A stretch of DNA of 32,000 bases from Erysipelotrichaceae bacterium (GTDB lineage Bacteria > Bacillota_I > Bacilli_A > Erysipelotrichales > Erysipelotrichaceae). The stretch lies in NCBI GenBank assembly GCA_963663995.1, contig OY760660.1:540001-572000 (forward strand), in the 5' to 3' direction. The notes under the pieces were generated by a model that was not told the DNA's origin, ran no database searches, and saw nothing but the letters and a program-made list of their open reading frames with translations. Shown in pieces: positions 1,123 through 16,282 of this stretch (within the stretch, counting starts at the first letter, position 1; every line of letters begins with the position of its first letter). The translations under genes and the position numbers were made by a program.

Positions 1123-4076
1123 GCTTCACCTTCTACAATTTCTTCACCACTTGTATTGCTTGGTTCTGCCATCATCATCGCATCTGCTAGACGAACTTTC
1201 AACATTTGTGATACACCACCCACCTGCATCGTTACACCGTACAGAATGTCACACATCGCCATAGTTCCTGGACGATGGGTTAAAACGATAAATTGGGTAT
1301 TTTCTTCAGAGAAGTGTTTCATATAGTGCGCAAAACGTTCAACATTGGCTTGGTCAAGTGCTGCTTCTACTTCATCAAAAACACAAAGGGGCATATGACG
1401 AACTTGTAAAATCGCAAATAAAACTGAAATTGCAATTAAACTCTTTTCACCCCCAGAGAATAGGCGCATATTCTTAATCGACTTCCCTTTTGGTTGAACA
1501 TGTATTTCAATCCCAGAATTTAATACATCTTCTGGATTATCTAAAGCTAAATAAGCATGACCACCGCCAAACATATGTTGAATAACATTTGGTAATACTT
1601 CATTTATCTTTTCAATAATTTCAGTGAATTGACCAATCATAATACCGTCAAGTTCAGTAATTAAGCCTAAAATTTTATCGCGACTTTCTTCAATTTCTTT
1701 AACTTGTGTACCGATATGTTCATAACGTTCATTGACTTCTTCAAAATCAGCTGGTGCATTCATATTGATATTGCCTAAACGTTCGATATCTTCTCTTAGT
1801 TGGGCAACTTCTTCAACAGCATTTTCAGATAATATCTCAATTGGATGTTCAAGTGTATATTCATACGTCAATTGATAATCTGAAGATAAGCGATTCATTA
1901 AGTTTTCAACATTTGTTTGCGAACGTGTAATATCTAAATCTAATTCATGTTGAGTCGTTTTTAAAGCAGATAATTCACGTCTTTGCTGACGCATTTGATT
2001 ATCTCTTCTTTCACTCTCATTCCCTTTTTTTAAACGTGTATCACGCTTTGATTCTAATTGAAGTTTTAACTCATCTCGATCCGAATAAGCTTTATTTAAC
2101 AAATCGATTAAATCATCACTAAAGTTTTCTTCTTCACTTAAACTTGGTGAAATAGAATCTAAATCAGACTTTAGACGTTCATACTTTGCTCGTTTTGCCT
2201 CAACAACTGGTTCTAGTTGTGCAGCCGCAATACGTTGTTCTAAAAGATTTGATTCAAGTTCACTTTTTTGTGAACTTAATTCAAAGAGTTTATCTTGATG
2301 GCTACTGACACTAGCTTGGTATTGGACGATTTGTTGATTTAATTCTTCCATTTCCTTGTTTAAGGATAAAGGTGAATTATTATCTTTCTGACGACCACCA
2401 GTCATCGATCCACCACGATGGATAACATCACCATCTAAAGTAACGATTTTATATTGGTAATTTAATAGCTTAGCCATTTCATTACCATTCTCTAAATCAT
2501 CGACGACTAATACATTTCCAAGTAATGAATCATTGACAACATCATATTTAGGTTCGCAGATAACAAAATCAGCAGCTATCCCTAAATAACCTTTTGTTTC
2601 AGAAGCAACAATTGAATGTTCACGATTAATATAGCGTGGTCTAAGCACAGTTAAAGGTAAGAAAGTTGCACGCCCAGACTCATTCTTCTTTAAAAAGTTA
2701 ATTGCTCTTCGCGCTGATTCTTCATCCTTGGTGACGATATTATAAAGTGCTCCACCAAAAGCAGTAGATATCGCATCTTCATAACCTTTCTCAGGTACCA
2801 TCAAATTTGAAATAACGCCAAAAACACCATTTAGGGTTGATTGGGCTCTTACAATCGATTGAACCCCTGCTTGGTTCATAAATGGTCGTGCTTTTAAATT
2901 CTCTGCTACTTCTAATTTGTTTTTAGATCTTTGAAGACGATGTTGACTTTCTTCGACCAGACTATTTTGATCGATTAAAGCACGATTAATCTCAATCGAT
3001 TTTTGATTGAGTTGAATAATCTCTTGATTAATATTTTCTAAACGGGTAGAACGATCTTCATATTCCGCTTTTGCTTCTTGATAAAGTGATTTGAGTTCAT
3101 TCGCTCTCTCTTCACTATTTCCCACTTCTAAGGTGTACTTACGTCTTTCATCAATTTCAATCTTACGTGTTTCAAGCGTTTGAATTTCATTCATAACGCG
3201 CATTAAACGTTCTTGTATTTCATGAATACTTTGGTCTAAGTCATGGATTTCAGAACGTGCTAAAAGATTGGTATTTTCATGAACTTGGATTTGCGCTTCT
3301 AAAATAGCTTCTTGAGCAGAAAGTTCATTGACTTGTGCTTGGTTTTCACTCAAGCGTTGATTAAGTTGAGTAATTTGGTCTGAAATAACAGCAATCTCAA
3401 TTTCTTGGAGTCGTTGTTTCTTTTCAGCATATATTTTTGCTTTTTGAGCCGCTTTTTTAAGTGGTAGAACTTGTTTTTGTAGTTCTAGGTAAATATCATT
3501 GATACGATCTAAATTCGCTTGTGTGCGCTCTAATTTATGGACAGCATCATCTTTACGTTTACGATACTTAGCAACCCCAGCTGCTTCTTCAAAAATACCC
3601 CGACGATCAATCGGTTTAGCTTCAGCAAAATTAGAAATGGTTCCTTGCGAAATCATACTTAATGATTCACGACCAATCCCACTATCTAAAACTAAGTTAT
3701 GAATATCTTTTAATCGACAAGCTGTTTTATTAATAAGGTATTCACCCGATGAATCAGAACGATGAATACGACGAGTAATTTCAATTTCTTCATAATCGGA
3801 GTCAAAAGCACGATCATGGTTGTCAAAAACTAAGCTAACCTCAGCAAATTGAACACGTCGACGACTTTCACTTCCAGCAAAAATAACATCCACCATTTGG
3901 GATGATCTTAAGGATTTAACAGATTGCTCACCTAAAACCCATCGTATCGCATCAACAATATTACTCTTACCACAACCATTAGGTCCTACAACCCCAGTTA
4001 AAGCATGGTCAAAGTTAATTGTGACTCGATCCGCAAAGGATTTAAAGCCTTGCATTTCAATACGCTTTAAAAACAT
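1119..4076 (-). CDS. smc: Chromosome partition/condensin protein Smc (985 aa, short coiled-coil version)
   Basis: N-terminal Walker A GPNGCGKSNIVDAIRWVLGEQS. Long heptad-rich arms and a central hinge. C-terminal signature LSGGEKSLIAISVLFAI and Walker B CVFDEVEAALD. GGAGG SD sits 8 nt upstream. Confidence 0.95.
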   Translation of the reverse strand: MFLKRIEMQGFKSFADRVTINFDHALTGVVGPNGCGKSNIVDAIRWVLGEQSVKSLRSSQMVDVIFAGSESRRRVQFAEVSLVFDNHDRAFDSDYEEIEITRRIHRSDSSGEYLINKTACRLKDIHNLVLDSGIGRESLSMISQGTISNFAEAKPIDRRGIFEEAAGVAKYRKRKDDAVHKLERTQANLDRINDIYLELQKQVLPLKKAAQKAKIYAEKKQRLQEIEIAVISDQITQLNQRLSENQAQVNELSAQEAILEAQIQVHENTNLLARSEIHDLDQSIHEIQERLMRVMNEIQTLETRKIEIDERRKYTLEVGNSEERANELKSLYQEAKAEYEDRSTRLENINQEIIQLNQKSIEINRALIDQNSLVEESQHRLQRSKNKLEVAENLKARPFMNQAGVQSIVRAQSTLNGVFGVISNLMVPEKGYEDAISTAFGGALYNIVTKDEESARRAINFLKKNESGRATFLPLTVLRPRYINREHSIVASETKGYLGIAADFVICEPKYDVVNDSLLGNVLVVDDLENGNEMAKLLNYQYKIVTLDGDVIHRGGSMTGGRQKDNNSPLSLNKEMEELNQQIVQYQASVSSHQDKLFELSSQKSELESNLLEQRIAAAQLEPVVEAKRAKYERLKSDLDSISPSLSEEENFSDDLIDLLNKAYSDRDELKLQLESKRDTRLKKGNESERRDNQMRQQRRELSALKTTQHELDLDITRSQTNVENLMNRLSSDYQLTYEYTLEHPIEILSENAVEEVAQLREDIERLGNINMNAPADFEEVNERYEHIGTQVKEIEESRDKILGLITELDGIMIGQFTEIIEKINEVLPNVIQHMFGGGHAYLALDNPEDVLNSGIEIHVQPKGKSIKNMRLFSGGEKSLIAISVLFAILQVRHMPLCVFDEVEAALDQANVERFAHYMKHFSEENTQFIVLTHRPGTMAMCDILYGVTMQVGGVSQMLKVRLADAMMMAEPSNTSGEEIVEGEA

Positions 4077-4146
4077 GGAATGCCTCCATTCAACATCCCT
4101 TATTATAGCTTAAAAAGTGCTTTCTTTTAACATCGAAACCACTAAT

Positions 4147-4743
4147 TTATAGACGTATTTTTACGTGTATGACTTTACCAAAGATTTGAACTTGTAAATT
4201 TTCAATTTCTTCTGGTCCATAAACACGATCTTCGTATGCATCATTTTCAGAATGAAGGATCATTTTATTACCTTCGTAGTAAACACGCTTAACGGTTGCT
4301 TCTTCCTCAATCATCACAACGGCAATCTCACCATTTTCAACATGATTTTGACGTTTAACATAGATTAAATCTTTTGGAAAGATTCGAGCGTTTACCATTG
4401 AGTCACCAACAACCTCTAAATAGAAATAGGTTCCACCACGAGCTTCATTCATCGAAACGTATTCTTGACCTAAATAATCTTCTTGAGCCACTTGATTGGG
4501 CCCACCACGTACAACACCTAGAATAGGGATTAAGACAGCTTCTTCACCATTCATCAGTTCATCAACAGTCAAATTAAAAAGATCGGCTAAGCCTTGTAAA
4601 ACCTTCATCGGTGGCATCGCTGTTCCGTCTTCCCATTTTTGAATGGTGGTAAAAGACTTATAACCAAAGTGATTGGCTAAATCATTTTGACTTAAACCCT
4701 TGTCTTTTCTGAGTTGTTTTAAATGTTCATTGAAATTCATCAT
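4147..4743 (-). CDS. LexA-like/HdiR-like repressor: N-terminal XRE-family HTH fused to a C-terminal S24 self-cleaving peptidase domain
   Basis: HTH: LKQLRKDKGLSQNDLANHFGYKSFTTIQKWEDG. S24 catalytic motifs: GDSM (Ser) and ATVKRV (Lys). The track start at 4761 is a TTG lying inside the predicted promoter. I prefer the ATG at 4743 (MMNFNEH...). The gene is divergent from a Y-family polymerase. Confidence 0.85.
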   Translation of the reverse strand: MMNFNEHLKQLRKDKGLSQNDLANHFGYKSFTTIQKWEDGTAMPPMKVLQGLADLFNLTVDELMNGEEAVLIPILGVVRGGPNQVAQEDYLGQEYVSMNEARGGTYFYLEVVGDSMVNARIFPKDLIYVKRQNHVENGEIAVVMIEEEATVKRVYYEGNKMILHSENDAYEDRVYGPEEIENLQVQIFGKVIHVKIRL

Positions 4744-4749
4744 GCTTAT

Positions 4750-4777
4750 ATCATAACTCAACTTGAATATTTTTCAA
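4750..4777 (-). promoter_or_regulatory. Putative sigma-A promoter of the LexA-like gene (TTGAAA-16 nt-TATGAT), predicted to give a leaderless mRNA
   Basis: Minus strand reads TTGAAA (4777-4772), a 16-nt spacer, TATGAT (4755-4750), then 6 nt, then the ATG at 4743. There is no SD between the -10 and the ATG. Confidence 0.35.
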
Positions 4778-4780
4778 GTT
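4760..4780. promoter_or_regulatory. Operator candidate O1: perfect palindrome AACTTGAA-N5-TTCAAGTT
   Basis: Read directly: aacttgaa tattt ttcaagtt. It overlaps the -35/spacer of the predicted repressor promoter. Confidence 0.6.
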
Positions 4781-4789
4781 TCACTTGTG

Positions 4790-4808
4790 ACTTGAATTAA
4801 ATTCAAGT
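4790..4808. promoter_or_regulatory. Operator candidate O2: perfect palindrome ACTTGAA-N5-TTCAAGT
   Basis: Read directly: acttgaa ttaaa ttcaagt. Half-sites and spacing match O1. It lies in the spacer of the best polymerase-promoter candidate (TTGTGA 4785-4790, 17 nt, TAAACT 4808-4813). Confidence 0.6.
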
Positions 4809-4829
4809 AAACTAGACTTAGGTAAACAT

Positions 4830-6086
4830 ATGCAAGATCGAATTATATTACACTGTGATTTAAATAACTTTTATGCCTCGGTTGAATGCCTTCATCACCC
4901 TGAATACAAGAACATCCCTTTAGCAGTTGGCGGTGATGTTGAGAAAAGACACGGGATCGTTTTAGCGAAAAACCAAATTGCTAAACGCTATGGCATTCAA
5001 ACCGGAGAAACTTTGTGGCAAGCTAAACAAAAATGCCCATCCATTCTTTTTGTGAAGCCGAATTTTTCACTATATCTACGTTTCTCAAAAATGGTCAAAG
5101 ACATCTATCGAGAATATACTGATCAAGTTGAATCGTTTGGGATTGATGAAGCTTGGTTAGACGTTACCCATAGTATTCACCTCTTTAAATGCTCACCGGG
5201 ACAACTGGCTGATCAAATAAGAGAACGCATCAAAAAAGAAGTTGGAATTACCGCTTCTGTGGGTGTCAGTTTCAATAAAGTTTTTGCGAAGTTAGGTTCA
5301 GATATGAAAAAACCGGATGCGACTACTTTAATCACGCGTGAAAACATGGAAGCTTTGATTTACCCTTTACCGATTAGTGAACTCCTTTATGTTGGTCGAG
5401 CGACCACTAAAAAAATGAAGGAAATCGGTATCTTTACGATTGGTGATTGTGCTCGCTATGATGTCAATATCCTTAAACGTCGTTTAGGAAAATGGGGCGA
5501 ATATATTTGGCGTTTTGCGAACGGTTTAGAAAATAGTGTTGTGGCGGTTAATGATAATCAACCTTTAGTTAAATCGATTGGTAATAGCACTACTTCACCT
5601 AAGGACTTAAAGAATCTTGAAGATGTTAAGATTGTGACTTATGTTTTATCTGAAAGTGTGGCAGCCAGATTAAAAGAAGCCCATTTGATGTGCAAGACCG
5701 TTACGATTGCGGTGCGTGATTATAAATTGAATACCTTTACTCGACAAATACCTTTAAGCCACCCTTCTCAACTCTCAGAAACAATCGCGGCAGCAGCTCT
5801 TTACCTTTTTAAAGAAAATGTCGACTTTAAAAACCCTTTAAGAAGCATTGGGGTTAAAGCCTCTGATTTAGTCAGTGAACAAGACATTCTTCAACTCGAT
5901 ATCTTTATGGCTTATGACGATGAAGAAAAAGCTTTGAGTCTAGAGAAAACAATTGAACATATTCGTCAACGTTATGGTTTTAGTAGTGTTCAAAGAGCTT
6001 TAATGTTAAGCGATGTTGAACTGAGCGGCTTTAATCCTAAAGCAGATCATGTGATTTTCCCTGAAGCCTATTTCAAAGGATCTTAG
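4830..6086 (+). CDS. dinB: Y-family translesion DNA polymerase (DinB/UmuC superfamily; N-terminal motif looks closer to the UmuC type)
   Basis: ILHCDLNNFYASVEC (catalytic Asp plus the FYAS.E motif), GIDEAWLDVT, SVGVSFNKVFAKLGSDMKKPD. Length of 418 aa fits. Symbol is provisional: pipelines would usually call it dinB/Pol IV, but the NxFYAS.E motif resembles UmuC. Confidence 0.9.
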   Translation: MQDRIILHCDLNNFYASVECLHHPEYKNIPLAVGGDVEKRHGIVLAKNQIAKRYGIQTGETLWQAKQKCPSILFVKPNFSLYLRFSKMVKDIYREYTDQVESFGIDEAWLDVTHSIHLFKCSPGQLADQIRERIKKEVGITASVGVSFNKVFAKLGSDMKKPDATTLITRENMEALIYPLPISELLYVGRATTKKMKEIGIFTIGDCARYDVNILKRRLGKWGEYIWRFANGLENSVVAVNDNQPLVKSIGNSTTSPKDLKNLEDVKIVTYVLSESVAARLKEAHLMCKTVTIAVRDYKLNTFTRQIPLSHPSQLSETIAAAALYLFKENVDFKNPLRSIGVKASDLVSEQDILQLDIFMAYDDEEKALSLEKTIEHIRQRYGFSSVQRALMLSDVELSGFNPKADHVIFPEAYFKGS

Positions 6087-6089
6087 ATC

Positions 6090-6326
6090 ATGAAAATATA
6101 TGTCGATGTGGTGATTTTAAACACCAAAGAAGGACAAATTAAACCTTTAATGATTATCTGGAAGAATGGTGTAAAGTACGCCATTGATAAAGTATCTCAA
6201 GTAACACGAGCCGCTTCTACGATTGCTGGTGGAACTGGGATTCGCTATACTTGTTTTATCCAAGGTCAACAACGTTATCTCTTTTTAGAGGAAGATAAAT
6301 GGTTTATTGAAAAGAAGGAAGCTTAA
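6090..6326 (+). CDS. 78-aa hypothetical protein translationally coupled to the Y-family polymerase
   Basis: ATG lies 4 nt after the polymerase stop, with AAAGGA 9 nt upstream. It ends 1 nt before the SRAP start. I recognise no family by eye. It does not look like YolD (no RGxxKW-type motif). Confidence 0.6.
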   Translation: MKIYVDVVILNTKEGQIKPLMIIWKNGVKYAIDKVSQVTRAASTIAGGTGIRYTCFIQGQQRYLFLEEDKWFIEKKEA

Positions 6327-6327
6327 T

Positions 6328-6903
6328 ATGTGTGGACGATATTTATTTAGACAAGAAGTTGATGAAGAAATTGAAAGACTATTAAATGAATTACCCCCAT
6401 CTGTTCAACAAGAACTCTCTTTACATGAAATATATCCAAGTCATAAAACACTCGTTATTGATGAAAGTCAAAAATATAAAGTAATGCGCTGGGGTTACGC
6501 AAAATGGGATACAAAAGGTGTTGTGATTAACGCCCGTTCTGAAAGTATTAAAGAATCAACTTTCTTTAACCAAGACTTAAAAGAAAGAAGATGCATTATC
6601 AAAGCGAAAGGTTTCTACGAATGGAATAGTGATAAAGAAAAAAATTTAGTTACACCAACTAAAGACGAATACTTCTATATGGCCGGTCTTTATACAGATG
6701 AGGAAACCCCACGATTTGCGATTATAACTACCGAGTCTGAGGGAGATTTCAAAAACTTACACAACCGCATTCCATTAATGATTCCAAAGCAATATATCAA
6801 AGCCTATTTAACTGATGGATTTAATGTTTTTGAAGATTTCACTAAACTAAAACAAATGGACGTTCAGTGGGAAAATCAATCTGTTCTACAAAAACTTTTT
6901 TAA
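6328..6903 (+). CDS. SOS-response-associated peptidase (SRAP; YedK/HMCES family abasic-site sensor)
   Basis: Start corrected from 6307 to the ATG at 6328, so the protein begins MCGRY (the family-defining catalytic Cys2). AAGGAA SD at 6315-6320. Further motifs: INARSES, GFYEW, HNRIPLMI. Confidence 0.9.
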   Translation: MCGRYLFRQEVDEEIERLLNELPPSVQQELSLHEIYPSHKTLVIDESQKYKVMRWGYAKWDTKGVVINARSESIKESTFFNQDLKERRCIIKAKGFYEWNSDKEKNLVTPTKDEYFYMAGLYTDEETPRFAIITTESEGDFKNLHNRIPLMIPKQYIKAYLTDGFNVFEDFTKLKQMDVQWENQSVLQKLF

Positions 6904-6930
6904 AAAAACTAGCGCGAGCTAGTTTTCATT
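6901..6930. terminator. Bidirectional intrinsic terminator between convergent genes
   Basis: AAAACTAGC (6905-6913), GCGA loop, GCTAGTTTT (6918-6926). Flanked by an A-run and a T-run, so it can serve both strands. It overlaps the last codons of the 884-aa gene. Confidence 0.75.
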
Positions 6931-9563
6931 TTTCTTTGTTTCATTGATTTTTTAAACCATTTACGATAATCAGTTCCGAAAATAACGAATACAACCATCA
7001 ACATCGCAAGGAATTGAATAACCGCAATGGCAAATAGAATTTTATAGGAAATTGGAAATGTATAGAATTCCGCCTTAGATATAACAAATTCAGAAGCATG
7101 ACCAGGTTCAAATGTAATCCAGCCATCAATAACTTTTACATCTTTTGCTATTAACGAAAATCTATTTTTTAGTGGATCAAAATGGTAAACAGTTACAATA
7201 TCTCCATTTACGAATTGATCTGAAACATCTGCCTCTAAAAATACGCCTGATCCAATTGGACCACTATATTCTAGATTTAAAACTAGTTTTGGCGCAAAAT
7301 TACTGAGTTCATCTAATTGTTTTGAGTAATCAGAACCATAGCCTAAACCAAAGACTAAATCCTTTAAGCTTTGAATAGAATCAGCATTAATATACCAATT
7401 AGCAATATTACCTAAAGCAGGATCATTAACTATAATTTTTAATTTTTTACCCATTTCAGTAATTTTGTTGAGTAATGTTGTATCAATAACTTCACCATTT
7501 GAAATGGATAATATTAAGTCTTCAGCAACAAGCTCATCAATGAATTTAGCCATATCTTCTTGACCCAATTCTTCAATGTTTGCTCCTCTAATAACTGTAA
7601 TGGTAAATGTTTTAAGTTCAAAACTTTCAGAAAGAACATCAACAGTAATCGTGTTTTTCCCAAGCTTTAAACTTTCAGGATAATTAATAGTAACTGTTGC
7701 AGCAGCATCTTCAGCAACAGCATTTACTACGATAGAAGTTTCTTCCAAAGGTATGCTTATTTCATAATTTATAAGACTATTACTAAAATCTAAATCATAA
7801 TTTTCGATACTTAAAGTTGAAAGATTATTATTGTCAGAAACATCACCTAAGAACCCTTTAGCATCTTTTCTCATAATCTTGATACTATAGGTCGTTTTAC
7901 TTTGATTTTCTGCTGTTACAACGATATTAAATGTGTTTTCATAAATCGCTAATGATTTTGTGCCAGCGCCACTTACGGTTGCACTAGATTGATTTGGTGT
8001 AGCGCTAATATCAATTGTTGATACACCATTTTCTACAACTGCATAGTAATACAGTTCTTTTGCATCAAAATTTAGATCTACGCCTTCTAAGCTTAAGTCT
8101 TTTAAACTTGAATCAGTATCACGAGTATCAGTTTTCTTAATAACGATTGTATATGTCTTCACATCAGTATTCTCTGCTGTAACAACGACTTTAAAAGTAT
8201 TTGTTCCATAAGCAAGCGTTTTTGTTCCAGTTCCAGTAATACTTGATTTTGTATCTGTACGCTCTGCAGCAATAGTAATGCTTGTAGCTTCAGTTGATCC
8301 TAAATCATAATACGTTTTAGTATTCGAAAATCCCTCTACAGAACTACCATCAACAGTTAAACTGCTTACCGTGTTTACAGTACTTCTATTATCATTTCGA
8401 GTTACTTTTACTGAATACGTCTTAGTTGTTGAATTTTCTGCTGTAACAACAATATTAAATGTATTAACCCCATATGCTAAAGATTTAGTTCCTGTTCCAC
8501 TAACACTTGCTTTTGCATCATTAACACTAGCTGCTATCGTTATACTTGCATCATCTGTGCTATATGCAAGACTTGAGATTACTGATGTACCATTCACTGT
8601 TAGTGCTGATAGTGTATTGTCAGTACTACGTGTGTCATTTCGAGTAATTGTTAAAGTATATGTTTTCTTACTACCATTCTCTGCTGTTACCACGATATTA
8701 AAAGAATTAGATCCATAATTTAATGTTTTAGTACCAGTACCTTCTATCGTAGCTTTGCTATCAGTGGCAGTTGCGGCTACAACAACAGATGCACTATCAG
8801 TTGAAGTACTAAGCGAACTTAAAACATTTGTTCCATTAACAGTTAATGCAGATAAAGTATTAACAGTACTTCTTGTATCATTTCTTGTAATACTAACTGA
8901 GTAAGTTTTAGTGCTTCCATTTTCGGCTGTAACAACAACATTAAATGTGTTAGCACCATAATTAAGCGTTTTAGTACCTGTGCCAGAAATACTTGCACCT
9001 GAATGATTTGCAGTGGCCGTTATTGTTGCAGAGGCATTATCAGTTGAATAAGCCAGTGAAGATAGGACATTTGAACCATCTACAGCTAATGCACTTAATG
9101 TGTTATCACTGCTTAAAGCTTGCGCAATATTAACTGTTACTGATCCAGATCCACCTGATTGAAAAGAAACTCCATCAGAAACTTCTATTCTTGATAAGGT
9201 AATAGATGTTGAAGTCCCTGCCGTAAAAGAACTTGTTGCTTGAAATGTAATATTCACAACATTAAAACTACCTGTTTGTGCAGTACTTGGACTATCTAAA
9301 AGAAAAGAAGTCGCTCCAGCGGTTAAATTATAATTTGAATTTCCAGAAGAACCTGTAATTGTTAATTTTGAACTATCATATGAAATATATGCTTGAACAG
9401 CCTGAGCAGTTAAATCAGTTGAAACTGAAATTGATACACTAAAAGATGCACCTGAGTTAATTGTTCCACCACCAGAAATTGAACCACCAACATTAGCTTG
9501 GATTGGCAACGGATTTAAAAGCGATATTAAGAGTAATAAAACTAAAGCGATATATTTTTTCAT
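6909..9563 (-). CDS. Membrane-anchored surface stalk protein: signal peptide, cohesin-like module, 6 cadherin-like beta-sandwich repeats, unknown domain, C-terminal TM anchor
   Basis: Signal peptide MKKYIALVLLLLISLLNPLPIQA/N. aa 25-147 is cohesin-like. aa 151-660 holds six ~80-90-aa repeats of the type LSALxVxG...TGTKTLxYGxNTFNxVVTAENxxxKTYxxxxTR. C-terminal hydrophobic stretch ILFAIAVIQFLAMLMVVFVIF is followed by a KR-rich tail. GGAG SD lies inside the end of the upstream gene. Confidence 0.85.
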   Translation of the reverse strand: MKKYIALVLLLLISLLNPLPIQANVGGSISGGGTINSGASFSVSISVSTDLTAQAVQAYISYDSSKLTITGSSGNSNYNLTAGATSFLLDSPSTAQTGSFNVVNITFQATSSFTAGTSTSITLSRIEVSDGVSFQSGGSGSVTVNIAQALSSDNTLSALAVDGSNVLSSLAYSTDNASATITATANHSGASISGTGTKTLNYGANTFNVVVTAENGSTKTYSVSITRNDTRSTVNTLSALTVNGTNVLSSLSTSTDSASVVVAATATDSKATIEGTGTKTLNYGSNSFNIVVTAENGSKKTYTLTITRNDTRSTDNTLSALTVNGTSVISSLAYSTDDASITIAASVNDAKASVSGTGTKSLAYGVNTFNIVVTAENSTTKTYSVKVTRNDNRSTVNTVSSLTVDGSSVEGFSNTKTYYDLGSTEATSITIAAERTDTKSSITGTGTKTLAYGTNTFKVVVTAENTDVKTYTIVIKKTDTRDTDSSLKDLSLEGVDLNFDAKELYYYAVVENGVSTIDISATPNQSSATVSGAGTKSLAIYENTFNIVVTAENQSKTTYSIKIMRKDAKGFLGDVSDNNNLSTLSIENYDLDFSNSLINYEISIPLEETSIVVNAVAEDAAATVTINYPESLKLGKNTITVDVLSESFELKTFTITVIRGANIEELGQEDMAKFIDELVAEDLILSISNGEVIDTTLLNKITEMGKKLKIIVNDPALGNIANWYINADSIQSLKDLVFGLGYGSDYSKQLDELSNFAPKLVLNLEYSGPIGSGVFLEADVSDQFVNGDIVTVYHFDPLKNRFSLIAKDVKVIDGWITFEPGHASEFVISKAEFYTFPISYKILFAIAVIQFLAMLMVVFVIFGTDYRKWFKKSMKQRKMKTSSR
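7584..9113 (-). repeat. Six tandem cadherin-like beta-sandwich (CLD-type) domain repeats, coding
   Basis: aa 151-660. Repeats 1-3 are very similar at protein level (roughly two thirds identical by eye). Repeats 4-6 are progressively more diverged. Confidence 0.8.
9123..9491 (-). other. Cohesin-like module (aa 25-147 of the 884-aa protein)
   Basis: Pattern G-ASFSVSISV....AVQAYISYDSSKLTI..G ... GSFNVVNITFQATSSFTAGTSTSITLSRIEVSD. This matches my recollection of the cohesin profile: a G.tv.v.V strand, a giagfqf.l.YD...L core, then G.la.l.F.v....g.s..I.l. Assignment is by eye only. Confidence 0.6.
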
Positions 9564-9567
9564 TAAA

Positions 9568-12500
9568 TTACTCCATTCCTACTAAGATTCTTCTTAAACG
9601 AATTAAATCAACCAAATTAACACTTCCATCTCTATTTACATCTAATGCTTCAAGATTAGTAGCATCTAAAGTTCCTGTACCAACCATATATTTTCTTAAT
9701 AGAATAATATCAAGAAGATTCGTTACATTATCAGCATTTGCATCCCCTAATATCATTGAAGATACTGTTGCAGTTGCTGTAACTCCCGATCTTAGTGTTG
9801 CCATAATAGTTGCACTACCTCTGCCTACTGCGCTTACAATTCCATTAGATACCGTTGCTACCGATGTATTTGAGCTAGACCAAGAAACACCTTGAGTTAA
9901 TGCGTTGTTCGCGTCATAGCTAGCATATAATTTACCATCTTTTATATTACTTATATCAAGCGTTGCAATATTTAAAGAAACTGAATTTGCTACAAGCGCT
10001 ACTGTTACGTCAATATTTTTAACTATTTTTCCATCTTCACTAATGACTTTAATGTCTGTATATCCATTATCATGAGCAGTGATCAAACCATTAGAGTCAA
10101 CGCTAGCAATAGATGGATTCAATGAATAATATTTAAATGAAGTGTAGTTAGAATCTAAAGGCACAGGTGTTATAGAAATTTGTTGCGTTTCATTAGCGGC
10201 TGTAAGTGTATACGAAGATGATGCTAAAGTGAAATCTGTTAAAGGTATATCTACAACAATGTAAACATAACCCACAATAATTCCATCAATATCAACTGTA
10301 ATTATGGCTGAACCGGCAGAAACACTTGTAATCAAACCAATATTGGTATTTGTTATATCATTTGAGACAGTAACTACATTTTCATTAGAACTTGTAAAAG
10401 TATAAATACTGTTTTCAGCATAGACTAGTTCTAAATTTTGAATACTACCTAAAGCATTAAAATATCTAAAATTTTCGAAATCAGATTGAGAATCTTGCGA
10501 ATCAACTTCTAAAACCAATCCATAATCAGCAAAATATTTTAATCGATAAATCGTTAAGTTTGTTTCATCAAAATATTCAGTGATGGCAGCATCAACGTAA
10601 GTATTATCACTTATAACTGAAGTATATGTAATTGGTGAATATTTACTATTCACATTCGCCACAACATTTAATCGATACACGCTATCCGTTAATTCTAATG
10701 AACTAAAATTAGTATCAGCCAAACTAAAAGCAGAATAATCATACGTATATAAACCATTACCGTAATTATTAGTAATATCAGAAGTTGCAGTTGCTGAAGT
10801 TGTAAGATTCAAAGTTTTCTGAATAGTATTTGTTGAGTCTATGAAATTAAGTTTATATGACACATCAAATGGATTAAAAGTGGAAACACCATCTTGCCAT
10901 ATAGTTCCCGTTAAACTAAATATGTTTGTCAAATCATCATATACAAACGATGTATTCAATTTCGCATCCATATTTGCCAAATATTCATTGTAAGTATAAG
11001 TAATATATTGATAATCAAGTCCTGACGCAACAACATTAAAGTTAGAATATTTTACATATACTCGGCCATTCTGCCAATCATAAGGGACTAAATCAATTGG
11101 ATCAACTTTACTATTAGTTTCAGAATAATAAATTGCAGTACCAGAATTTGTAATTGGCATAGTTGAGTTGACTTCATACCAATTATTACTGCTTACATCG
11201 TTAAATTGATCATTAATAATGAATGAATAATTTCGAATTTTATTTGTAATTGTATATGAATACAAAGTTAATGATGAATCCAATGGTTCACTCTTTATTG
11301 AATAAGTTGCCCCGTCCGGAATCATTCCAATTTCGTAAGTGTTATAGTCTCTAAATCCACTATATCTATCAATTCGATAAGCCCACCCAGCAACTTTGTT
11401 TGCCCAATATGGATCAGATGCATATTTTGTCGCAATACCACTATTTTTAGTTCCAAATGATGAACTGAAAAATCGGAAATCTTCAATACTTAAATAACCA
11501 CGAATATGCAAACCCATATACTCTTCAACTGAAGAAGCTATAGAATCAAAAACTTTTGCTGCATAAACATTTGAGTCATATGCACCCCAGCCATAAAGGT
11601 TTTTATAATCAATCGCTAATTTTGAACGTCCTATGCCACTTTCATGCATTGCTAATGCATAGATTAAAAGTGCATTAACACCATATGTTTTCTCATTTGA
11701 TTTAAATGACTGTCCTTGATTAACAAGCATACTTTGTGTAGAAGATAATGAAGCATAAGTTGTTGGAATTGATGTATAACCAAGTGCATTTACGTACTTA
11801 TCAAAATCAGTAGAGTCTAGATTAGATTTAGTTCTTAATGGTAAATATTGATAGTAATTATAATATTCACCAGGGTTATCTCCATCCATAACAGGTATAG
11901 TTAATCCCATATCATAGAAAAAATGGATAGAATCAGCACTATAAAAATTACCATTTGGTAACCAATCTGGAGCTTTACCATATGTATATTCTGAAAAATA
12001 ATTTCCACTATAAGTAGATACAGTTGCATGAGCAATTTCTCTTATATTGCTAGTAGCACCTGTTGAATCTGGATAATTAGTATTGGTATAAACACGATAA
12101 ACATTCATTTTCGGAATTAAAGTGAATGGTTGCTCTTCTGTTGTTGAGCCTTTAACACGTTCTTCGTAGGTATTACCACCTAAAGTTATGCTCCATCCTT
12201 TTTCAATGTAGATTAAAGGTATAATATCAATCGATTTAATATGAACATAACCTTTAAAGCCATTAATTTGAACAAATGCTGTACCATCACCTGTTGTTGG
12301 ATCAAAACTATCTGTAACGTAATAAATTAAGTCACGATAGGCTTGCATATATGTTGAATACCCTGAGAAAGTTGTACCACTGACATATTGGTGAACTGTT
12401 AAAAGAACACTGTTATCGACATAATTATCAGTTCTTCTTAGTGGATAACTTGAAGCAAGTGCTCTTTGTGCTGCAACTATTTTTAGTGGACTTAATGATT

Positions 12501-12732
12501 GTTCGTGTTGAATAATCATATCGTTATAAGAACTACTATAACTAGTCATGCTTGATTTAGCAGCAGATAGATTCGAGTAACAGCCTAAAGCTGTTTGAGA
12601 TTTATCTTGATTGATATTGGATAAATAGAATTCTGAACTTGAACATGACCCTAAAGCTAAAAGTTCCAATTTTGCCATTGGAAAGATTGAAACTATAAGT
12701 AGGAAAGTTATAAATAGAATTCTTTTTTTCAT
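9568..12732 (-). CDS. Secreted GH73-family peptidoglycan hydrolase (N-acetylglucosaminidase type) with 3 Big_2-like Ig domains and a C-terminal type-I dockerin
   Basis: N-terminal signal sequence. GH73 core: YGVNALLIYALAMHESGIGRSKLAIDYKNLYGWGAYD...ATKYASDPYWANKV. Three Ig-like repeats are SSNENVVTVS...GSAIITV, LNPSIASVDSNGLITAHDNGYTDIKV and WSSSNTSVATVSNGIVSAVGRGSATIMA. Dockerin at aa 995-1054. Start lies 2 nt after the upstream stop. Confidence 0.9.
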   Translation of the reverse strand: MKKRILFITFLLIVSIFPMAKLELLALGSCSSSEFYLSNINQDKSQTALGCYSNLSAAKSSMTSYSSSYNDMIIQHEQSLSPLKIVAAQRALASSYPLRRTDNYVDNSVLLTVHQYVSGTTFSGYSTYMQAYRDLIYYVTDSFDPTTGDGTAFVQINGFKGYVHIKSIDIIPLIYIEKGWSITLGGNTYEERVKGSTTEEQPFTLIPKMNVYRVYTNTNYPDSTGATSNIREIAHATVSTYSGNYFSEYTYGKAPDWLPNGNFYSADSIHFFYDMGLTIPVMDGDNPGEYYNYYQYLPLRTKSNLDSTDFDKYVNALGYTSIPTTYASLSSTQSMLVNQGQSFKSNEKTYGVNALLIYALAMHESGIGRSKLAIDYKNLYGWGAYDSNVYAAKVFDSIASSVEEYMGLHIRGYLSIEDFRFFSSSFGTKNSGIATKYASDPYWANKVAGWAYRIDRYSGFRDYNTYEIGMIPDGATYSIKSEPLDSSLTLYSYTITNKIRNYSFIINDQFNDVSSNNWYEVNSTMPITNSGTAIYYSETNSKVDPIDLVPYDWQNGRVYVKYSNFNVVASGLDYQYITYTYNEYLANMDAKLNTSFVYDDLTNIFSLTGTIWQDGVSTFNPFDVSYKLNFIDSTNTIQKTLNLTTSATATSDITNNYGNGLYTYDYSAFSLADTNFSSLELTDSVYRLNVVANVNSKYSPITYTSVISDNTYVDAAITEYFDETNLTIYRLKYFADYGLVLEVDSQDSQSDFENFRYFNALGSIQNLELVYAENSIYTFTSSNENVVTVSNDITNTNIGLITSVSAGSAIITVDIDGIIVGYVYIVVDIPLTDFTLASSSYTLTAANETQQISITPVPLDSNYTSFKYYSLNPSIASVDSNGLITAHDNGYTDIKVISEDGKIVKNIDVTVALVANSVSLNIATLDISNIKDGKLYASYDANNALTQGVSWSSSNTSVATVSNGIVSAVGRGSATIMATLRSGVTATATVSSMILGDANADNVTNLLDIILLRKYMVGTGTLDATNLEALDVNRDGSVNLVDLIRLRRILVGME
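9571..9750 (-). other. Type-I dockerin module (duplicated Ca-binding F-hand segments)
   Basis: Segment 1: GDANADNVTNLLDIILLRKYMVG. Segment 2: DVNRDGSVNLVDLIRLRRILVG. Both have D/N at loop positions 1, 3, 5, 9 and 12, followed by an amphipathic helix. The linker is 12 aa. Confidence 0.85.
9763..10410 (-). other. Three bacterial Ig-like (Big_2-type) domains, aa ~775-990
   Basis: Each unit carries the recurrent S.N..VA.V...G.v.a...G.a.I.v signature. Confidence 0.7.
11368..11715 (-). other. GH73 (glucosaminidase) catalytic domain, aa ~340-455
   Basis: Catalytic-Glu context AMHESGIGRSKLA, then NLYGWGAYD and YASDPYW, which are typical GH73/LytD-type motifs. Confidence 0.8.
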
Positions 12733-12734
12733 AA

Positions 12735-13685
12735 CTATTCAATTAATGTGAACACGTAAGGTTCATCTACCCCTTCAATATAAAGTTCTAGATAAGCTGG
12801 TTCTTCCATTAGTGTACTTGCACTAGAATATAAATCAAAGAATAAGTAAGCTGTTGTATCATTAGTTAATTTTTCATTAAATAGATTACGCAACTCTTCA
12901 ATGCTAATTCGTGCTGGTAGCGCTGTATTTTCTCTTTGTGTTTTAGTGAAAATATAATTTGCAGCTGAAATTTTTATGGCTGTATCTTCGTCAAGATCTA
13001 TTTCTAAAAGCACAGCATGAATCTTTGCTGTCGAAGGAAACTCAACTGCTTCAGTATTTCCATCCTGAGTCTCATAAATTGTTTTTCCTGAAAAGTCTGC
13101 AACATCTAACACTTTAATCGTTCCACCATCAAAGCGTGCTAGTTTAGCTTCATCTTGTGCATTATAACCTAACATTTCTTTCGTTCCAGATTTTACAGAT
13201 AAATCTAGTGTCACTTGTACATTTTCGTAACGTCCAAAGATTAAATCAAGAGATTTAACGTCTTTATCAACGACAGGTACAAATAATCGAACTGTATATA
13301 ATTCCATGTCTTTAGGAACATCAAAATCAATGTTCTGAATATTGATATCTAAACCATTATTATTTAGCATTTCGATATAATTAGAATAATTAGAAAGGAA
13401 GATATCTTCCGACGTATAAATATCTTCAAACGTCATATCCATAACTTCGTTAGAACTAAGTGTTACGTCAACAATTAAAAAATTAAAATCCATGTCATCA
13501 AAATCAAAAACGATGTAGTTATTGAGAGTTATATTTACTTCCTGAGCTATTTTTTCAGGAATAGGTAAAATAACTTCTTTTTCTGCATCGTATGTATAGA
13601 AGTAGAGATCAAAAACGACCAAAGAAATGGACATTAATATGCTTAAAACAATTGGAATAATAATTAATAGGTGAATTTTTTTCAT
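12735..13685 (-). CDS. Hypothetical type-II membrane protein (N-terminal TM anchor, acidic extracytoplasmic domain); first gene of the hydrolase/stalk operon
   Basis: N-terminus MKKIHLLIIIPIVLSILMSISLVVFDLYF, then ~285 aa of beta-rich acidic sequence with no motif I recognise. Only 2-nt and 4-nt gaps separate it from the two downstream genes. Confidence 0.7.
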   Translation of the reverse strand: MKKIHLLIIIPIVLSILMSISLVVFDLYFYTYDAEKEVILPIPEKIAQEVNITLNNYIVFDFDDMDFNFLIVDVTLSSNEVMDMTFEDIYTSEDIFLSNYSNYIEMLNNNGLDINIQNIDFDVPKDMELYTVRLFVPVVDKDVKSLDLIFGRYENVQVTLDLSVKSGTKEMLGYNAQDEAKLARFDGGTIKVLDVADFSGKTIYETQDGNTEAVEFPSTAKIHAVLLEIDLDEDTAIKISAANYIFTKTQRENTALPARISIEELRNLFNEKLTNDTTAYLFFDLYSSASTLMEEPAYLELYIEGVDEPYVFTLIE

Positions 13686-13724: not shown

Positions 13725-14771
13725 TTAGAAGAAACTAAATACATCTTTTATAGAAATAAATATAAATAGCAAGAGTAATAACGCCATTGACACCATCATA
13801 ATTCCCTGTTCAAACTTCTGATTAAGTGGTTTTCCTCTTAACATTTCAACAAATATTAATAGTGATCGACCACCATCTAAAATTGGTACTGGAAGTAAAT
13901 TAAAGATAGCGATATTAACCGATAACAAAGCGACGACATAGAAAATAGCTCTAAATCCATATTGAGCACTTTCAGCAGTGAACTGGAATATTCCAACAGG
14001 TCCACTAACAGCATTTAAACCCAAACCCTTCATCAATCTTGATAAGGTCATCACAACTGAGGAAACCATATCTTTCATATCGATAAAAGCATATTTGATA
14101 CTTTCAAAAAAACCGATTTCTTTTACTTGGTATTCAGGGGTTTGAACACCTATCATATATTGATTGTTTTCTTCATTTAATACAGGTGTAACAGTCACCA
14201 CAACTGTTTCTCCTGCACGATCAAGCGTAAATTGAATTTCATCTGTATAAAACTGTAAAGCTTCTACTACATCATAAAAATCTTTAGGTTCTTGCACCGT
14301 ACCATCAGAGAATTGAATTGAAAGGATACGATCACCTTCCATCATTCCAGCTGCTTCTGCAGGCATTCCTGAAGTAATAGGTCCTAAGATAGGTTCTGGG
14401 GTTAAAACCACGGCTCCAGCTTCTAAATTCAATCCTGTTAAAACAATTAACGCTAAAACAAAATTCATAAATATGCCTGAAAGCATTACGATGATTCTTT
14501 TTAATGGCGCAATTTTTTGGATTGAACGAGAAGGATCAACACCCTCTTCTTCAACCCCTTCTTCTCCTAACATCGAAACAAAACCACCAAAGGGTAAAGC
14601 ACGAATAGAATAAAGTGTCTCTTTGCCTTTCCACTTAAAAAGTTTTGGGCCCATCCCAATCGCAAATTCTTTACAATAGACATTAAAAGCTTTAGCACTG
14701 ATTAAATGACCAGATTCATGAACTAAAACAATTAAACCTAATACAAATACAAAGGTTAAAATACTTTCCAT
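13725..14771 (-). CDS. rseP: RIP zinc metalloprotease RseP (site-2 protease)
   Basis: HESGHLISAK (HExxH), a central PDZ-like region, NLLPVPILDGG. Start moved to the ATG at 14771 (MESILTF...), which has a TAGGAG SD. The track start at 14807 lies inside cdsA. Confidence 0.9.
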   Translation of the reverse strand: MESILTFVFVLGLIVLVHESGHLISAKAFNVYCKEFAIGMGPKLFKWKGKETLYSIRALPFGGFVSMLGEEGVEEEGVDPSRSIQKIAPLKRIIVMLSGIFMNFVLALIVLTGLNLEAGAVVLTPEPILGPITSGMPAEAAGMMEGDRILSIQFSDGTVQEPKDFYDVVEALQFYTDEIQFTLDRAGETVVVTVTPVLNEENNQYMIGVQTPEYQVKEIGFFESIKYAFIDMKDMVSSVVMTLSRLMKGLGLNAVSGPVGIFQFTAESAQYGFRAIFYVVALLSVNIAIFNLLPVPILDGGRSLLIFVEMLRGKPLNQKFEQGIMMVSMALLLLLFIFISIKDVFSFF

Positions 14772-14778
14772 AAAACTC

Positions 14779-15546
14779 CTAAATGACCATAAATGAATAT
14801 AAAACATAGAAACTGACTAAAACAAATAGTAATGAGTCAATTCGATCTAATACACCACCATGAGCTGGGAATATTGTCCCAAAATCTTTAACACCAAAAT
14901 AACGTTTAATCGCTGATAAAGATAAATCTCCAAATTGAGCAACAATCGGTAAAATGGCAGAAGCAATAAGCATGACATTAAATGGGACTGAATCAATTAA
15001 GAAATAAGCATATAAACTTGATAAGGCAAATGATACTAACCATCCACCAATCGCACCTTCAACTGTTTTCTTAGGTGAAATCCTCTCATTTAATTTATGC
15101 TTTCCAAACAGATATCCCGAAAAATAAGCAGCTGTATCAGTTAAATATGTTACGACCAACATATATACAAGGGTTAAATTACCTAAACCTTGGATAAGTA
15201 ATACCCCTTTTAAAGCTGCACTAAAGAGTAATACCATTGATAATAGATAACCTGCATCAAAGGGTAAAAACCATTCAAAAAAGATAGGTAATGACATCAA
15301 AACCATCGTTGAAATAACCAAGACCAGGAATAGATCATTTAAATTTAATGCAACCATGGCAATAACCATCAACATCACTAAAAAATAAACCCAAAGTGGC
15401 CAGACATCTGCTTTTAAAGCATACACTTCATAAACACCAAAAGAAATGAATAAGACCACTAAGATTTTAAAAGGGATACCACCGATTAAAAAAGCGGGAA
15501 TAACAACTGCTAATATCGCAAGCCCAGTAATAATTCTTTGTTTCAT
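14779..15546 (-). CDS. cdsA: Phosphatidate cytidylyltransferase (CDP-diglyceride synthase)
   Basis: Polytopic membrane protein with the C-terminal signature SAIKRYFGVKDFGTIFPAHGGVLDRIDS. Confidence 0.9.
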   Translation of the reverse strand: MKQRIITGLAILAVVIPAFLIGGIPFKILVVLFISFGVYEVYALKADVWPLWVYFLVMLMVIAMVALNLNDLFLVLVISTMVLMSLPIFFEWFLPFDAGYLLSMVLLFSAALKGVLLIQGLGNLTLVYMLVVTYLTDTAAYFSGYLFGKHKLNERISPKKTVEGAIGGWLVSFALSSLYAYFLIDSVPFNVMLIASAILPIVAQFGDLSLSAIKRYFGVKDFGTIFPAHGGVLDRIDSLLFVLVSFYVLYSFMVI

Positions 15547-15549
15547 CTT

Positions 15550-16242
15550 TTATAGTCCCCCAAATCTTCGATCACGTTGTGCGACGTCAGCTAAAATTGA
15601 TTTAAATAAGTCGGCACTAAAAGCTGGCCAAGGTGTTGGTTCAAAAACTAATTCAGCATAGGCTAATTGCCAAAGTAAAAAGTTAGAAAGACGAGTTTCA
15701 CCAGATGTTCTGATGCATACATCTACATCTGGATAATCTTTAGTCATCATATATTGATTGAAGTCTTCTTCACTAATATCGATGTCTTGTTTCATGTCTA
15801 AAACAGCTTGTGCATACTTTTGAGCAGCTAAAGTAATTTCTCGACGTCCACCATAATTCATCGCAAAATTAAGAATCATTCCGGTGTTAGTTGAAGTCGT
15901 TTTAATCGCTCTTTCAAGGACATCCCGAGTACTATCAGGAAAAGCTGATAATTCACCAATACTTTGAATACGAATATTTTTATCCATCAGTTCTTTTAAG
16001 AAACGTTTAAAAAAGACATCAGGTAATTTCATTAAGAAATCGACTTCTTCTTTTGGACGTTTCCAATTTTCCGTAGAAAAAGCATAGAGTGTTAAAACCT
16101 CTATTCCTAAATCATTGGCCGCTATCGCGATTTCACGAACTTTTTCTGAACCTTCTTGATGTCCAAATGTTCTCTCTTTATTTTGTGCTTTCGCCCAACG
16201 ACCATTTCCATCCATAATAATGGCTACGTGTCTAAATCCCAT
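15550..16242 (-). CDS. uppS: Undecaprenyl (isoprenyl) diphosphate synthase
   Basis: HVAIIMDGNGRWA, FSTENWKRP, IRTSGETRLSNFLLWQ. Start moved to the ATG at 16242, which has a TAGGAG SD. The track start is a GTG inside the upstream hairpin. Confidence 0.92.
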   Translation of the reverse strand: MGFRHVAIIMDGNGRWAKAQNKERTFGHQEGSEKVREIAIAANDLGIEVLTLYAFSTENWKRPKEEVDFLMKLPDVFFKRFLKELMDKNIRIQSIGELSAFPDSTRDVLERAIKTTSTNTGMILNFAMNYGGRREITLAAQKYAQAVLDMKQDIDISEEDFNQYMMTKDYPDVDVCIRTSGETRLSNFLLWQLAYAELVFEPTPWPAFSADLFKSILADVAQRDRRFGGL

Positions 16243-16254
16243 AGTGCTCCTATT

Positions 16255-16282
16255 AAGAAAGAAGCTCACACAAAGTGAGCTT
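16255..16282 (-). terminator. Hairpin after frr (terminator/attenuator)
   Basis: Minus strand: AAGCTCAC-TTTGT-GTGAGCTT followed by CTTTCTT. The 8-bp stem overlaps the frr stop. The U-tract is interrupted, so termination is probably partial. Confidence 0.5.

Follow-up and report, generated by a model that had tools for sequence, protein, structure and literature searches.

The window analyzed here is a 32,000-nucleotide (nt) stretch of the Erysipelotrichaceae bacterium assembly GCA_963663995.1 (contig OY760660.1, positions 540,001 to 572,000), which carries three adjacent minus-strand genes that we call g1, g2 and g3. The g2 product is a LytB-like GH73 hydrolase that ends in a dockerin, and the g3 product is a membrane-anchored stalk with a cohesin at its distal end. 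We consider it probable that the hydrolase is docked by its dockerin on the g3 cohesin and so held on the surface of the producer, away from the membrane, for splitting or remodeling of the wall. This reading builds on domain identities, topology, gene order, co-occurrence and co-evolution, which we establish below; judged from them, physical docking of the two modules is the most likely arrangement. The three genes are separated by 2 nt (g1-g2) and 4 nt (g2-g3):

12735..13685, minus strand: g1, 316-amino-acid (aa) type II (N-in) single-pass membrane protein (open reading frame (ORF), AF2 model)
9568..12732, minus strand: g2, 1054-aa secreted LytB-like GH73 peptidoglycan N-acetylglucosaminidase (predicted) with a C-terminal dockerin (Pfam, PDB match)
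6909..9563, minus strand: g3, 884-aa stalk, cohesin membrane-distal, transmembrane anchor C-terminal (ORF, Pfam, hydropathy)

The ORF coordinates and both gaps agree exactly with those of an earlier note on this DNA, which had been made from the letters alone.

Cohesin of the stalk and dockerin of the hydrolase

The g3 protein is organized as follows:

9495-9563, minus strand: signal peptide, aa 1-23 (hydropathy)
9120..9494, minus strand: cohesin module, aa 24-148, directly after the signal peptide (Pfam, AF2, Foldseek)
7578..9113, minus strand: six Cadherin-like beta-sandwich repeats, aa ~151-662 (Pfam PF12733)
7059..7577, minus strand: membrane-proximal domain of no known family, aa ~663-835, conserved in stalk orthologues
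6912..7052, minus strand: C-terminal transmembrane helix, aa ~838-862, and basic cytoplasmic tail, aa 863-884 (hydropathy, sequence)

The N-terminal module of g3 is a cohesin by sequence and by fold. Cohesin was not listed in a Pfam scan of full-length g3, and aa 24-154 scanned alone matched Cohesin PF00963 with 28.3 bits (E 2.3e-6), above the gathering cut-off of 24.1. We then considered the family as a whole, using an alignment of 32 orthologous modules from stalk proteins (A1), 27 of which matched the Pfam family individually (best E 3.8e-14). A PDB search with the single g3 module returned spurious ApbE/congerin matches and one weak match to ScaE, whereas the A1 profile gave 24 matches with E up to 1, of which 21 were cohesins, including all of the top ten. 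AF2 on A1 produced an all-beta cohesin module with a predicted local distance difference test (pLDDT) score of 95.3 and a predicted template modeling (pTM) score of 0.85. When this model was compared with the PDB by Foldseek, all of the best 14 matches were cohesins, of types I, II and III (E down to 2e-8, TM-score 0.69-0.77), and for several of these the solved structure includes a bound dockerin. The non-cellulosomal NagJ cohesin of Clostridium perfringens (2JH2, 2W1N, 2O4E, 2OZN) was among the top matches of both the profile and the fold. Taken together, the Pfam, orthologue, PDB-profile, AF2 and Foldseek results confirm the cohesin call.

The modest score of the window protein, its absence from the full-length listing and the failure of the single-sequence search to single out cohesins would suit another explanation, that the g3 module is an Ig-like adhesin domain, the dockerin a Ca-binding stabilizing or wall-binding module, and the functions of the two proteins separate. 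The strong family-level evidence argues against this, and such an explanation would leave unaccounted for both the strict co-presence and co-absence of stalk and dockerin and their co-evolution (see below). It also fits poorly with a relative that has ChW repeats, taken as surface-anchoring, for its dockerin exactly where the stalk is absent. We therefore regard separate functions without docking as very improbable.

Relatives of this cohesin module are few: an exhaustive HMMER search against 1.84 billion representatives yielded no more than 73. In nearly all of them the module occupies residues ~25-150, and cadherin-like repeats come next. The repeats of g3 itself were recognized by Pfam as six stretches of Cadherin-like PF12733 (126.1 bits, gathering cut-off 24.2) that start at aa 151, 232, 313, 394, 482 and 576. 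For the membrane-proximal domain, Pfam gave no match in the window protein and no consistent one in the family, and nothing significant was found among PDB sequences (best E 0.13). Pfam and hydropathy thus agree with the earlier note, which had seen in g3 a signal peptide, a cohesin-like module at the mature N-terminus, six cadherin-like repeats, an unfamiliar domain and a C-terminal membrane anchor. Most lineages have 2-3 cadherin-like repeats per stalk, whereas the clade of the window has 6 and its hydrolase also has three extra Big_2 domains; tether length is thus lineage-specific.

The g2 protein comprises the following parts:

12655..12732, minus strand: signal peptide, aa 1-26 (hydropathy; A26 near-invariant)
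11743..12654, minus strand: family-specific N-terminal domain, aa 27-330, conserved in a 41-sequence hydrolase alignment (A3)
11371..11712, minus strand: GH73 catalytic domain, aa 341-454 (Pfam PF01832), with the Glu364 codon at 11641-11643
9763..10407, minus strand: three Big_2 Ig-like domains, aa ~776-990 (Pfam, 3 stretches, 67.8 bits)
9571..9750, minus strand: type I dockerin with two F-hand Ca-binding repeats, aa 995-1054 (Pfam PF00404, PDB dockerin matches, family alignment)

The GH73/Glucosaminidase family PF01832 was matched with 52.4 bits (cut-off 30.2). The GH73 motifs HE364SG and Y437ASDPYW are intact, and E364 and Y437-A-S-D are invariant in the 41 homologues of A3. According to profile and catalytic motifs, g2 is predicted to be a peptidoglycan N-acetylglucosaminidase that hydrolyzes the bond between N-acetylglucosamine (GlcNAc) and N-acetylmuramic acid (MurNAc), GlcNAc-beta-1,4-MurNAc. 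Among solved structures, the catalytic module of Streptococcus pneumoniae LytB (4Q2W, 7PJ3 to 7POD) comes closest, with an E in the PDB search of 2.2e-16 for the window protein and 2.2e-34 for the family profile. This homology is confined to the catalytic region; the Pfam scan of g2 found no CW_binding or choline-binding repeats, which sets it apart from the choline-binding LytB family.

At the other end of the protein, Dockerin_1 PF00404 was matched at aa 995-1050 with 42.7 bits (cut-off 22.9), and the PDB search retrieved solved dockerins with E down to 2.8e-7. Both Ca-binding loops, DANADNVTNLLD and DVNRDGSVNLVD, are canonical. They lie in a duplicated segment of ~22 residues with an EF-hand-like Ca loop (D1, N3, D5, D12), as is typical of type I dockerins. 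The Big_2 domains may act as a spacer ahead of the dockerin. Of the Pfam families that the earlier note had proposed to look for, Glucosaminidase, Big_2 and Dockerin_1 were all found in g2, and its description of a secreted GH73 hydrolase with a duplicated C-terminal dockerin stands. By hydropathy, the topology of g2 consists of a signal peptide only; in the family alignment the near-invariant A26 is followed by conserved C30 and C51. No Pfam match was obtained for aa 27-330.

Co-occurrence and co-evolution of dockerin and stalk

To place the trio in its lineage, one genome per GTDB species was scanned with A3, which yielded 80 more loci. The large majority belong to Erysipelotrichales (Erysipelothrix, Holdemania, Anaerorhabdus, Solobacterium, Bulleidia and others), and a few are in records with other names. 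Hydrolase homologues that combine GH73 and Dockerin_1 are numerous in Erysipelothrix and in metagenome-assembled genomes (MAGs) of Erysipelotrichaceae. Loci were annotated with custom hidden Markov models for the dockerin, the cohesin, g1, the hydrolase core and the stalk C-terminus. Contigs with g1 identities of 66% and 35% carry the trio in unchanged order and spacing, and the distance from the hydrolase stop to the start of the cadherin-like-repeat stalk was 2-4 nt in every locus inspected. The architecture recurs in ~20 divergent genomes and is thus not a chance pattern.

Co-occurrence was counted in those 71 non-redundant loci whose downstream sequence was long enough. Of these, 19 combined a dockerin-bearing hydrolase with a cohesin stalk immediately downstream, 3 had a dockerin without stalk, none a stalk without dockerin and 49 neither. 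The association has a Fisher p of 2e-14, a value inflated by the phylogenetic non-independence of the loci, because those with dockerin and stalk form essentially one clade in a neighbor-joining tree of the hydrolase core. Within this clade, dockerin and stalk are retained jointly down to ~31-53% hydrolase identity. Conservation of the neighborhood, which the earlier note had asked to be surveyed, thus holds at this divergence, and dockerin and stalk are kept together.

We next compared the divergence of the two modules by Mantel tests on p-distances, using 13 non-redundant cohesin/dockerin pairs. Cohesin and dockerin distances were strongly correlated (r=0.88, Mantel p<=1e-4; r=0.90 with 19 pairs), and the partial correlation was still 0.855 when the hydrolase core was controlled for. 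Much lower values were obtained for the cohesin against its own stalk C-terminal domain (r=0.45) or against the hydrolase core (r=0.44), and for the dockerin against its own catalytic core (r=0.54). Cohesin and dockerin thus track each other and not their own polypeptides, as expected of cognate binding partners.

Several relatives have other modules where g2 has its dockerin. The hydrolase of locus L026 (9800-13285) branches with the dockerin and stalk clade; it carries six ChW repeats in place of Big_2 and dockerin, and no stalk gene is present. In L046 (9722-12022) a DUF5648 domain (Pfam) stands in place of the dockerin, and in L057 the hydrolase ends in a repeat similar to this DUF5648; both loci lack a stalk gene. 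The replacement of the dockerin by ChW or DUF5648 where the stalk is absent suggests that the C-terminal anchor is modularly swapped. In our reading, the dockerin would be one interchangeable anchoring module that goes hand in hand with the stalk. The idea that hydrolase and stalk result from the split of a fused ancestor was considered and rejected: the dockerin-less hydrolases have no C-terminal transmembrane helix of their own and end in soluble beta-rich domains, ChW repeats or DUF5648.

Some observations weigh against a dedicated tether. First, the distribution of 19, 0 and 49 loci would correspond to about one gain followed by long joint retention, not to many independent events. Second, a deep-branching clade (L063, L077 and L085, the last being the complete chromosome OW818668.1, 8700-12511) has a dockerin-bearing hydrolase but lacks a cohesin gene within 10 kilobases (kb), so dockerins of this hydrolase family can exist with a distant partner or with none. 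The g1-hydrolase pair of this clade is inverted between SRAP and rseP, and its GH73 domain has an insertion. Third, the same sequence space contains another dockerin protein with ten Cadherin-like repeats (P0142) and, on a 1.5-kb contig, a 218-aa metagenomic protein that joins a cohesin of the g3 family to a C-terminal dockerin in an adaptor-like manner (P0260, L092:443-1099). Given P0142 and P0260, the specificity between cohesin and dockerin may be other than one-to-one. Finally, the physiological role and the length of the stalk are inferred, as are the enzymatic specificity and the function of g1.

The dockerin hydrolases without an adjacent cohesin, together with the cadherin-like protein with a dockerin and the cohesin-dockerin protein, would fit a different arrangement, in which g3 is a general surface scaffold for several dockerin proteins, or the partner of the g2 dockerin is encoded elsewhere, and the adjacency of g2 and g3 is merely historical. 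Promiscuous cohesins are also the rule in cellulosomes. However, within the clade stalk and dockerin are always adjacent, are predicted to be coupled and never occur singly, and the cohesin follows the divergence of the dockerin much more closely than that of its own protein. Each stalk moreover has a single cohesin and can thus take one cargo at a time. For these reasons we find a general scaffold, or a partner elsewhere, unlikely and favor docking of g2 on g3.

Membrane partner, gene neighborhood and proposed role

The third gene of the trio, g1, has one transmembrane helix:

13605..13673, minus strand: N-terminal transmembrane helix of g1, aa ~5-27, after MKK (hydropathy; helix in the AF2 model)

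An AF2 model of g1 from a 14-sequence alignment (pLDDT 83.9, pTM 0.46) shows this helix at aa 2-30, a disordered linker and beta-sandwich domains at ~aa 50-165 and 180-316. Searches of Pfam, NCBIfam and PDB sequences gave no match for g1, and Foldseek found no fold match to its model in the PDB at E<1e-3. Against the viral library BFVD, the best match was a DUF4352 protein with an E of 1e-6 but a low TM-score (0.30-0.34), and DUF5067-type Ig-like proteins were also matched at low TM-score. A word-indexed search returned five relatives. These results bear out the view of g1 in the earlier note as an uncharacterized type II membrane protein.

In 69 of 79 loci the gene directly upstream of the hydrolase is a g1 homologue, with or without dockerin or stalk, which makes g1 and the hydrolase an ancient, order-wide pair. 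By this distribution, the pair is taken to be ancient across Erysipelotrichales and dockerin and stalk to be a later addition in one clade. Conversely, a sub-clade (L009, L024 and L027) keeps dockerin and stalk and lacks g1. The trio proposed in the earlier note as a unit is thus upheld in its recurring order and spacing, but its parts also occur separately. Probably g1 positions or restrains the hydrolase at the membrane; it does not seem to be part of the cohesin-dockerin device as such. In several relatives, an extra gene of 206-217 aa overlaps the start of the g1 homologue (L005:6392-7045, L007:6422-7042). This gene is absent from the window and has a weak AbiEi_4 HTH match (22.3 bits, below the gathering cut-off of 25).

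The trio is surrounded by the following features:

13725-16269: uppS-cdsA-rseP, upstream neighbor of g1
9564..9580, minus strand: g2/g3 junction, last g2 codons GGA ATG GAG TAA (sequence)
6905..6926, no strand assigned: terminator-like hairpin at the 3' end of g3, shared with that of the convergent SRAP gene (sequence)
6307-6903, plus strand: SRAP, downstream flank, SOS-type cluster
4830-6086, plus strand: DinB/IMS, downstream flank, SOS-type cluster
4147-4761, minus strand: LexA-like HTH+S24 protein, downstream flank, SOS-type cluster
1119-4076, minus strand: SMC, beyond the SOS-type cluster
181-1122, minus strand: FtsY, beyond the SOS-type cluster

A GGAG Shine-Dalgarno sequence lies within the last g2 codons, 7 nt before the g3 ATG, and suggests that translation of g3 is coupled to that of g2; none comparable is visible in the window sequence before g1 and g2. 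As only 39 nt separate rseP from g1 and no terminator was seen in this gap, transcription may be shared with uppS-cdsA-rseP. The three genes, called an operon in the earlier note, are as tightly packed as it described, but instead of being a separate operon they may belong to the uppS-cdsA-rseP transcription unit as its last members. The genes uppS-cdsA-rseP are found 1-9 kb upstream of the g1-hydrolase pair in most of the 80 related loci, and in the dockerin and stalk clade the other side of the pair is bounded by the SRAP-dinB-lexA cluster. The SOS-type cluster of the downstream flank (window 181-6903 region) is kept beside the locus in relatives.

According to the mechanism that we propose, g2 would be exported via Sec, and its type I dockerin would bind, in a Ca-dependent manner, the single cohesin at the membrane-distal tip of g3. 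The complex would be held in the cytoplasmic membrane by the C-terminal helix of g3, while the six Ig-like repeats and the membrane-proximal domain would project the cohesin outward by roughly 25-30 nm (our estimate). In this way the hydrolase would stay on the producer and reach only a band of the wall at a set distance from the membrane. There it could trim or split mature or septal wall, during daughter-cell separation or remodeling, without diffusing away and with the nascent wall spared. With its two Ig-like ectodomains, g1 would act separately on the hydrolase at the membrane.

The same parts could in principle make a weapon, in which the stalk presents the hydrolase past the wall of the producer for contact lysis of neighboring cells and g1 is a membrane-bound immunity protein or inhibitor. 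The long stalk with its six Ig-like repeats, the additional reach given by the three Big_2 domains of g2 and the pairing of g1 with the enzyme, like that of immunity genes, would agree with such a role, and dockerin-linked putative lysozymes of the rumen have been suggested to act in microbial competition (PMC6487960). However, the pair stays near uppS-cdsA-rseP in most related Erysipelotrichales loci, as expected of vertical inheritance, and does not show the patchy, mobile distribution typical of toxin-immunity pairs. Moreover, the closest enzyme is the housekeeping separase LytB, and the loss of g1 in L009, L024 and L027, which keep enzyme and stalk, is at odds with an essential immunity protein. 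A weapon is, in our view, quite improbable.

A LytB-like enzyme at a conserved position near uppS-cdsA-rseP makes a housekeeping role likelier. Of the two roles that the earlier note had left side by side, daughter-cell separation, or wall remodeling, is the more likely and fits better than contact-dependent killing, which we disfavor. As far as gene neighborhood and inheritance indicate, the signature of the locus is that of vertically inherited envelope housekeeping and not of a mobile toxin-immunity cassette.

A second arrangement of this kind was found in L078 (L078:3931-13494), a contig labelled as a Eubacteriaceae MAG (CAZHJK010000026.1), where dockerin-tagged wall enzymes lie beside C-terminally membrane-anchored cohesin-like proteins:

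3931-5145, minus strand: signal peptide, cohesin-like module, unassigned domain, C-terminal transmembrane helix and basic tail (no Pfam match; 22 bits with the custom cohesin profile)
5148-6257, minus strand: signal peptide, N-terminal cohesin, unassigned domain, C-terminal transmembrane helix and basic tail (Pfam Cohesin, 29.2 bits, above the cut-off)
6270-8300, minus strand: SpoIID-like domain, SH3_3 and dockerin
9974-12004, plus strand: GH73-family domain, SH3_3 and dockerin
12028-13494, plus strand: third C-terminally membrane-anchored protein

This locus appears to be an independent parallel, with the same design principle outside Erysipelotrichales. We tentatively propose, as a generalization that may well prove too broad, that single-cohesin membrane 'ruler' proteins are an unrecognized, recurrent means by which monoderms control their own wall hydrolases. 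The enzymes would be plugged by a dockerin on a stalk of lineage-specific length (2-6 Ig repeats) that fixes the cutting depth and replaces anchoring by teichoic acids or wall repeats. Such systems would have arisen independently in Erysipelotrichaceae (with GH73) and in a Eubacteriaceae lineage (with SpoIID-like and GH73 enzymes).

Comparison with known systems

How Gram-positive bacteria target their autolysins and protect themselves from them is a long-standing question. The known answers are wall- or teichoic-acid-binding repeats, membrane anchors on the enzyme and regulators such as FtsEX. A cohesin-dockerin plug on a membrane stalk would, if true, be a different solution, made of protein only and in principle reversible, and the stalk might serve as a ruler, since how far the enzyme sits from the membrane would depend on stalk length. 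It would also extend cohesin-dockerin biology from nutrient acquisition and toxins to housekeeping of the cell envelope, and provide a compact natural 1:1 pair (about 125 aa and 60 aa) for surface display. Independently of the stalk, the order-wide g1-hydrolase pair points to an uncharacterized membrane partner of LytB-like separases in Erysipelotrichales.

The author of the earlier note knew of no system that couples a GH73 autolysin to an adjacent cohesin scaffold. Likewise, full-text searches of the literature gave us no report of a cohesin-dockerin pair used to tether the GH73 or LytB-like hydrolase of the same bacterium, nor of a C-terminally membrane-anchored stalk with a single cohesin. 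Such a tether of a cell's own wall hydrolase has apparently not been described before.

LytB is the N-acetylglucosaminidase that separates pneumococcal daughter cells. Its structure is known (4Q2W; PMC4633669, PMC10434722), and it is placed by teichoic-acid binding and by the PASTA ectodomain of the single-pass membrane kinase StkP (PMC10434722). Like g2, LytB is modular, with non-catalytic modules that fix its location. Its anchor consists of choline-binding repeats. These are absent from g2, whose non-catalytic parts are a family-specific N-terminal domain, Big_2 spacers and a dockerin.

SagB-SpdC of Staphylococcus aureus is a possible analogy for g1 and the hydrolase, as the GH73 glucosaminidase SagB relies for its activity and placement on a membrane protein dedicated to it. 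That partner, SpdC, is polytopic and CAAX-like, and SagB has a membrane anchor of its own. In contrast, g1 is a single-pass protein with Ig-like ectodomains, and no sequence relationship between g1 and SagB-SpdC was found.

Dockerin-linked putative lysozymes of rumen metagenomes have been noted as a case of dockerins employed outside cellulosomes (Bensoussan et al. 2017, PMC6487960). They were reported only as a domain combination in metagenomic ORFs, with no cognate cohesin, stalk, neighborhood or lineage-wide conservation described.

Among cellulosomal proteins, g3 is closest in design to the anchoring scaffoldins (SdbA/OlpB of C. thermocellum, ScaE of R. flavefaciens), in which a surface-anchored distal cohesin also captures a dockerin partner. 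The likeness extends to the type-I-like dockerin of g2, with its two symmetric Ca-binding repeats, and to the fold of the g3 module (Foldseek TM-score 0.7-0.77 to scaffoldin cohesins). Unlike scaffoldins, g3 has one cohesin and no carbohydrate-binding module (CBM), and its cargo would be a single peptidoglycan hydrolase instead of plant-wall enzymes. Its anchor is a C-terminal transmembrane helix where theirs are SLH domains or a sortase signal, its spacer is made of cadherin-like repeats, and g2 and g3 are adjacent and predicted to be translationally coupled. The locus therefore lacks the multi-cohesin and/or CBM-bearing scaffoldin and the multiple enzymes that mark a cellulosome or amylosome, and g3 resembles an anchoring scaffoldin.

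Non-cellulosomal cohesin-dockerin pairs are established in C. perfringens toxins and in amylosomes. The C. perfringens complexes (GH84 NagJ/NagH, NanJ) share with g2 and g3 the non-cellulosomal pairing of glycoside hydrolases through cohesin and dockerin in a Firmicute. In those complexes secreted toxins are linked with one another and their substrates are host glycans; in the window, by contrast, the cohesin belongs to a stalk that is membrane-anchored and non-enzymatic, and the predicted target of the enzyme is bacterial peptidoglycan.

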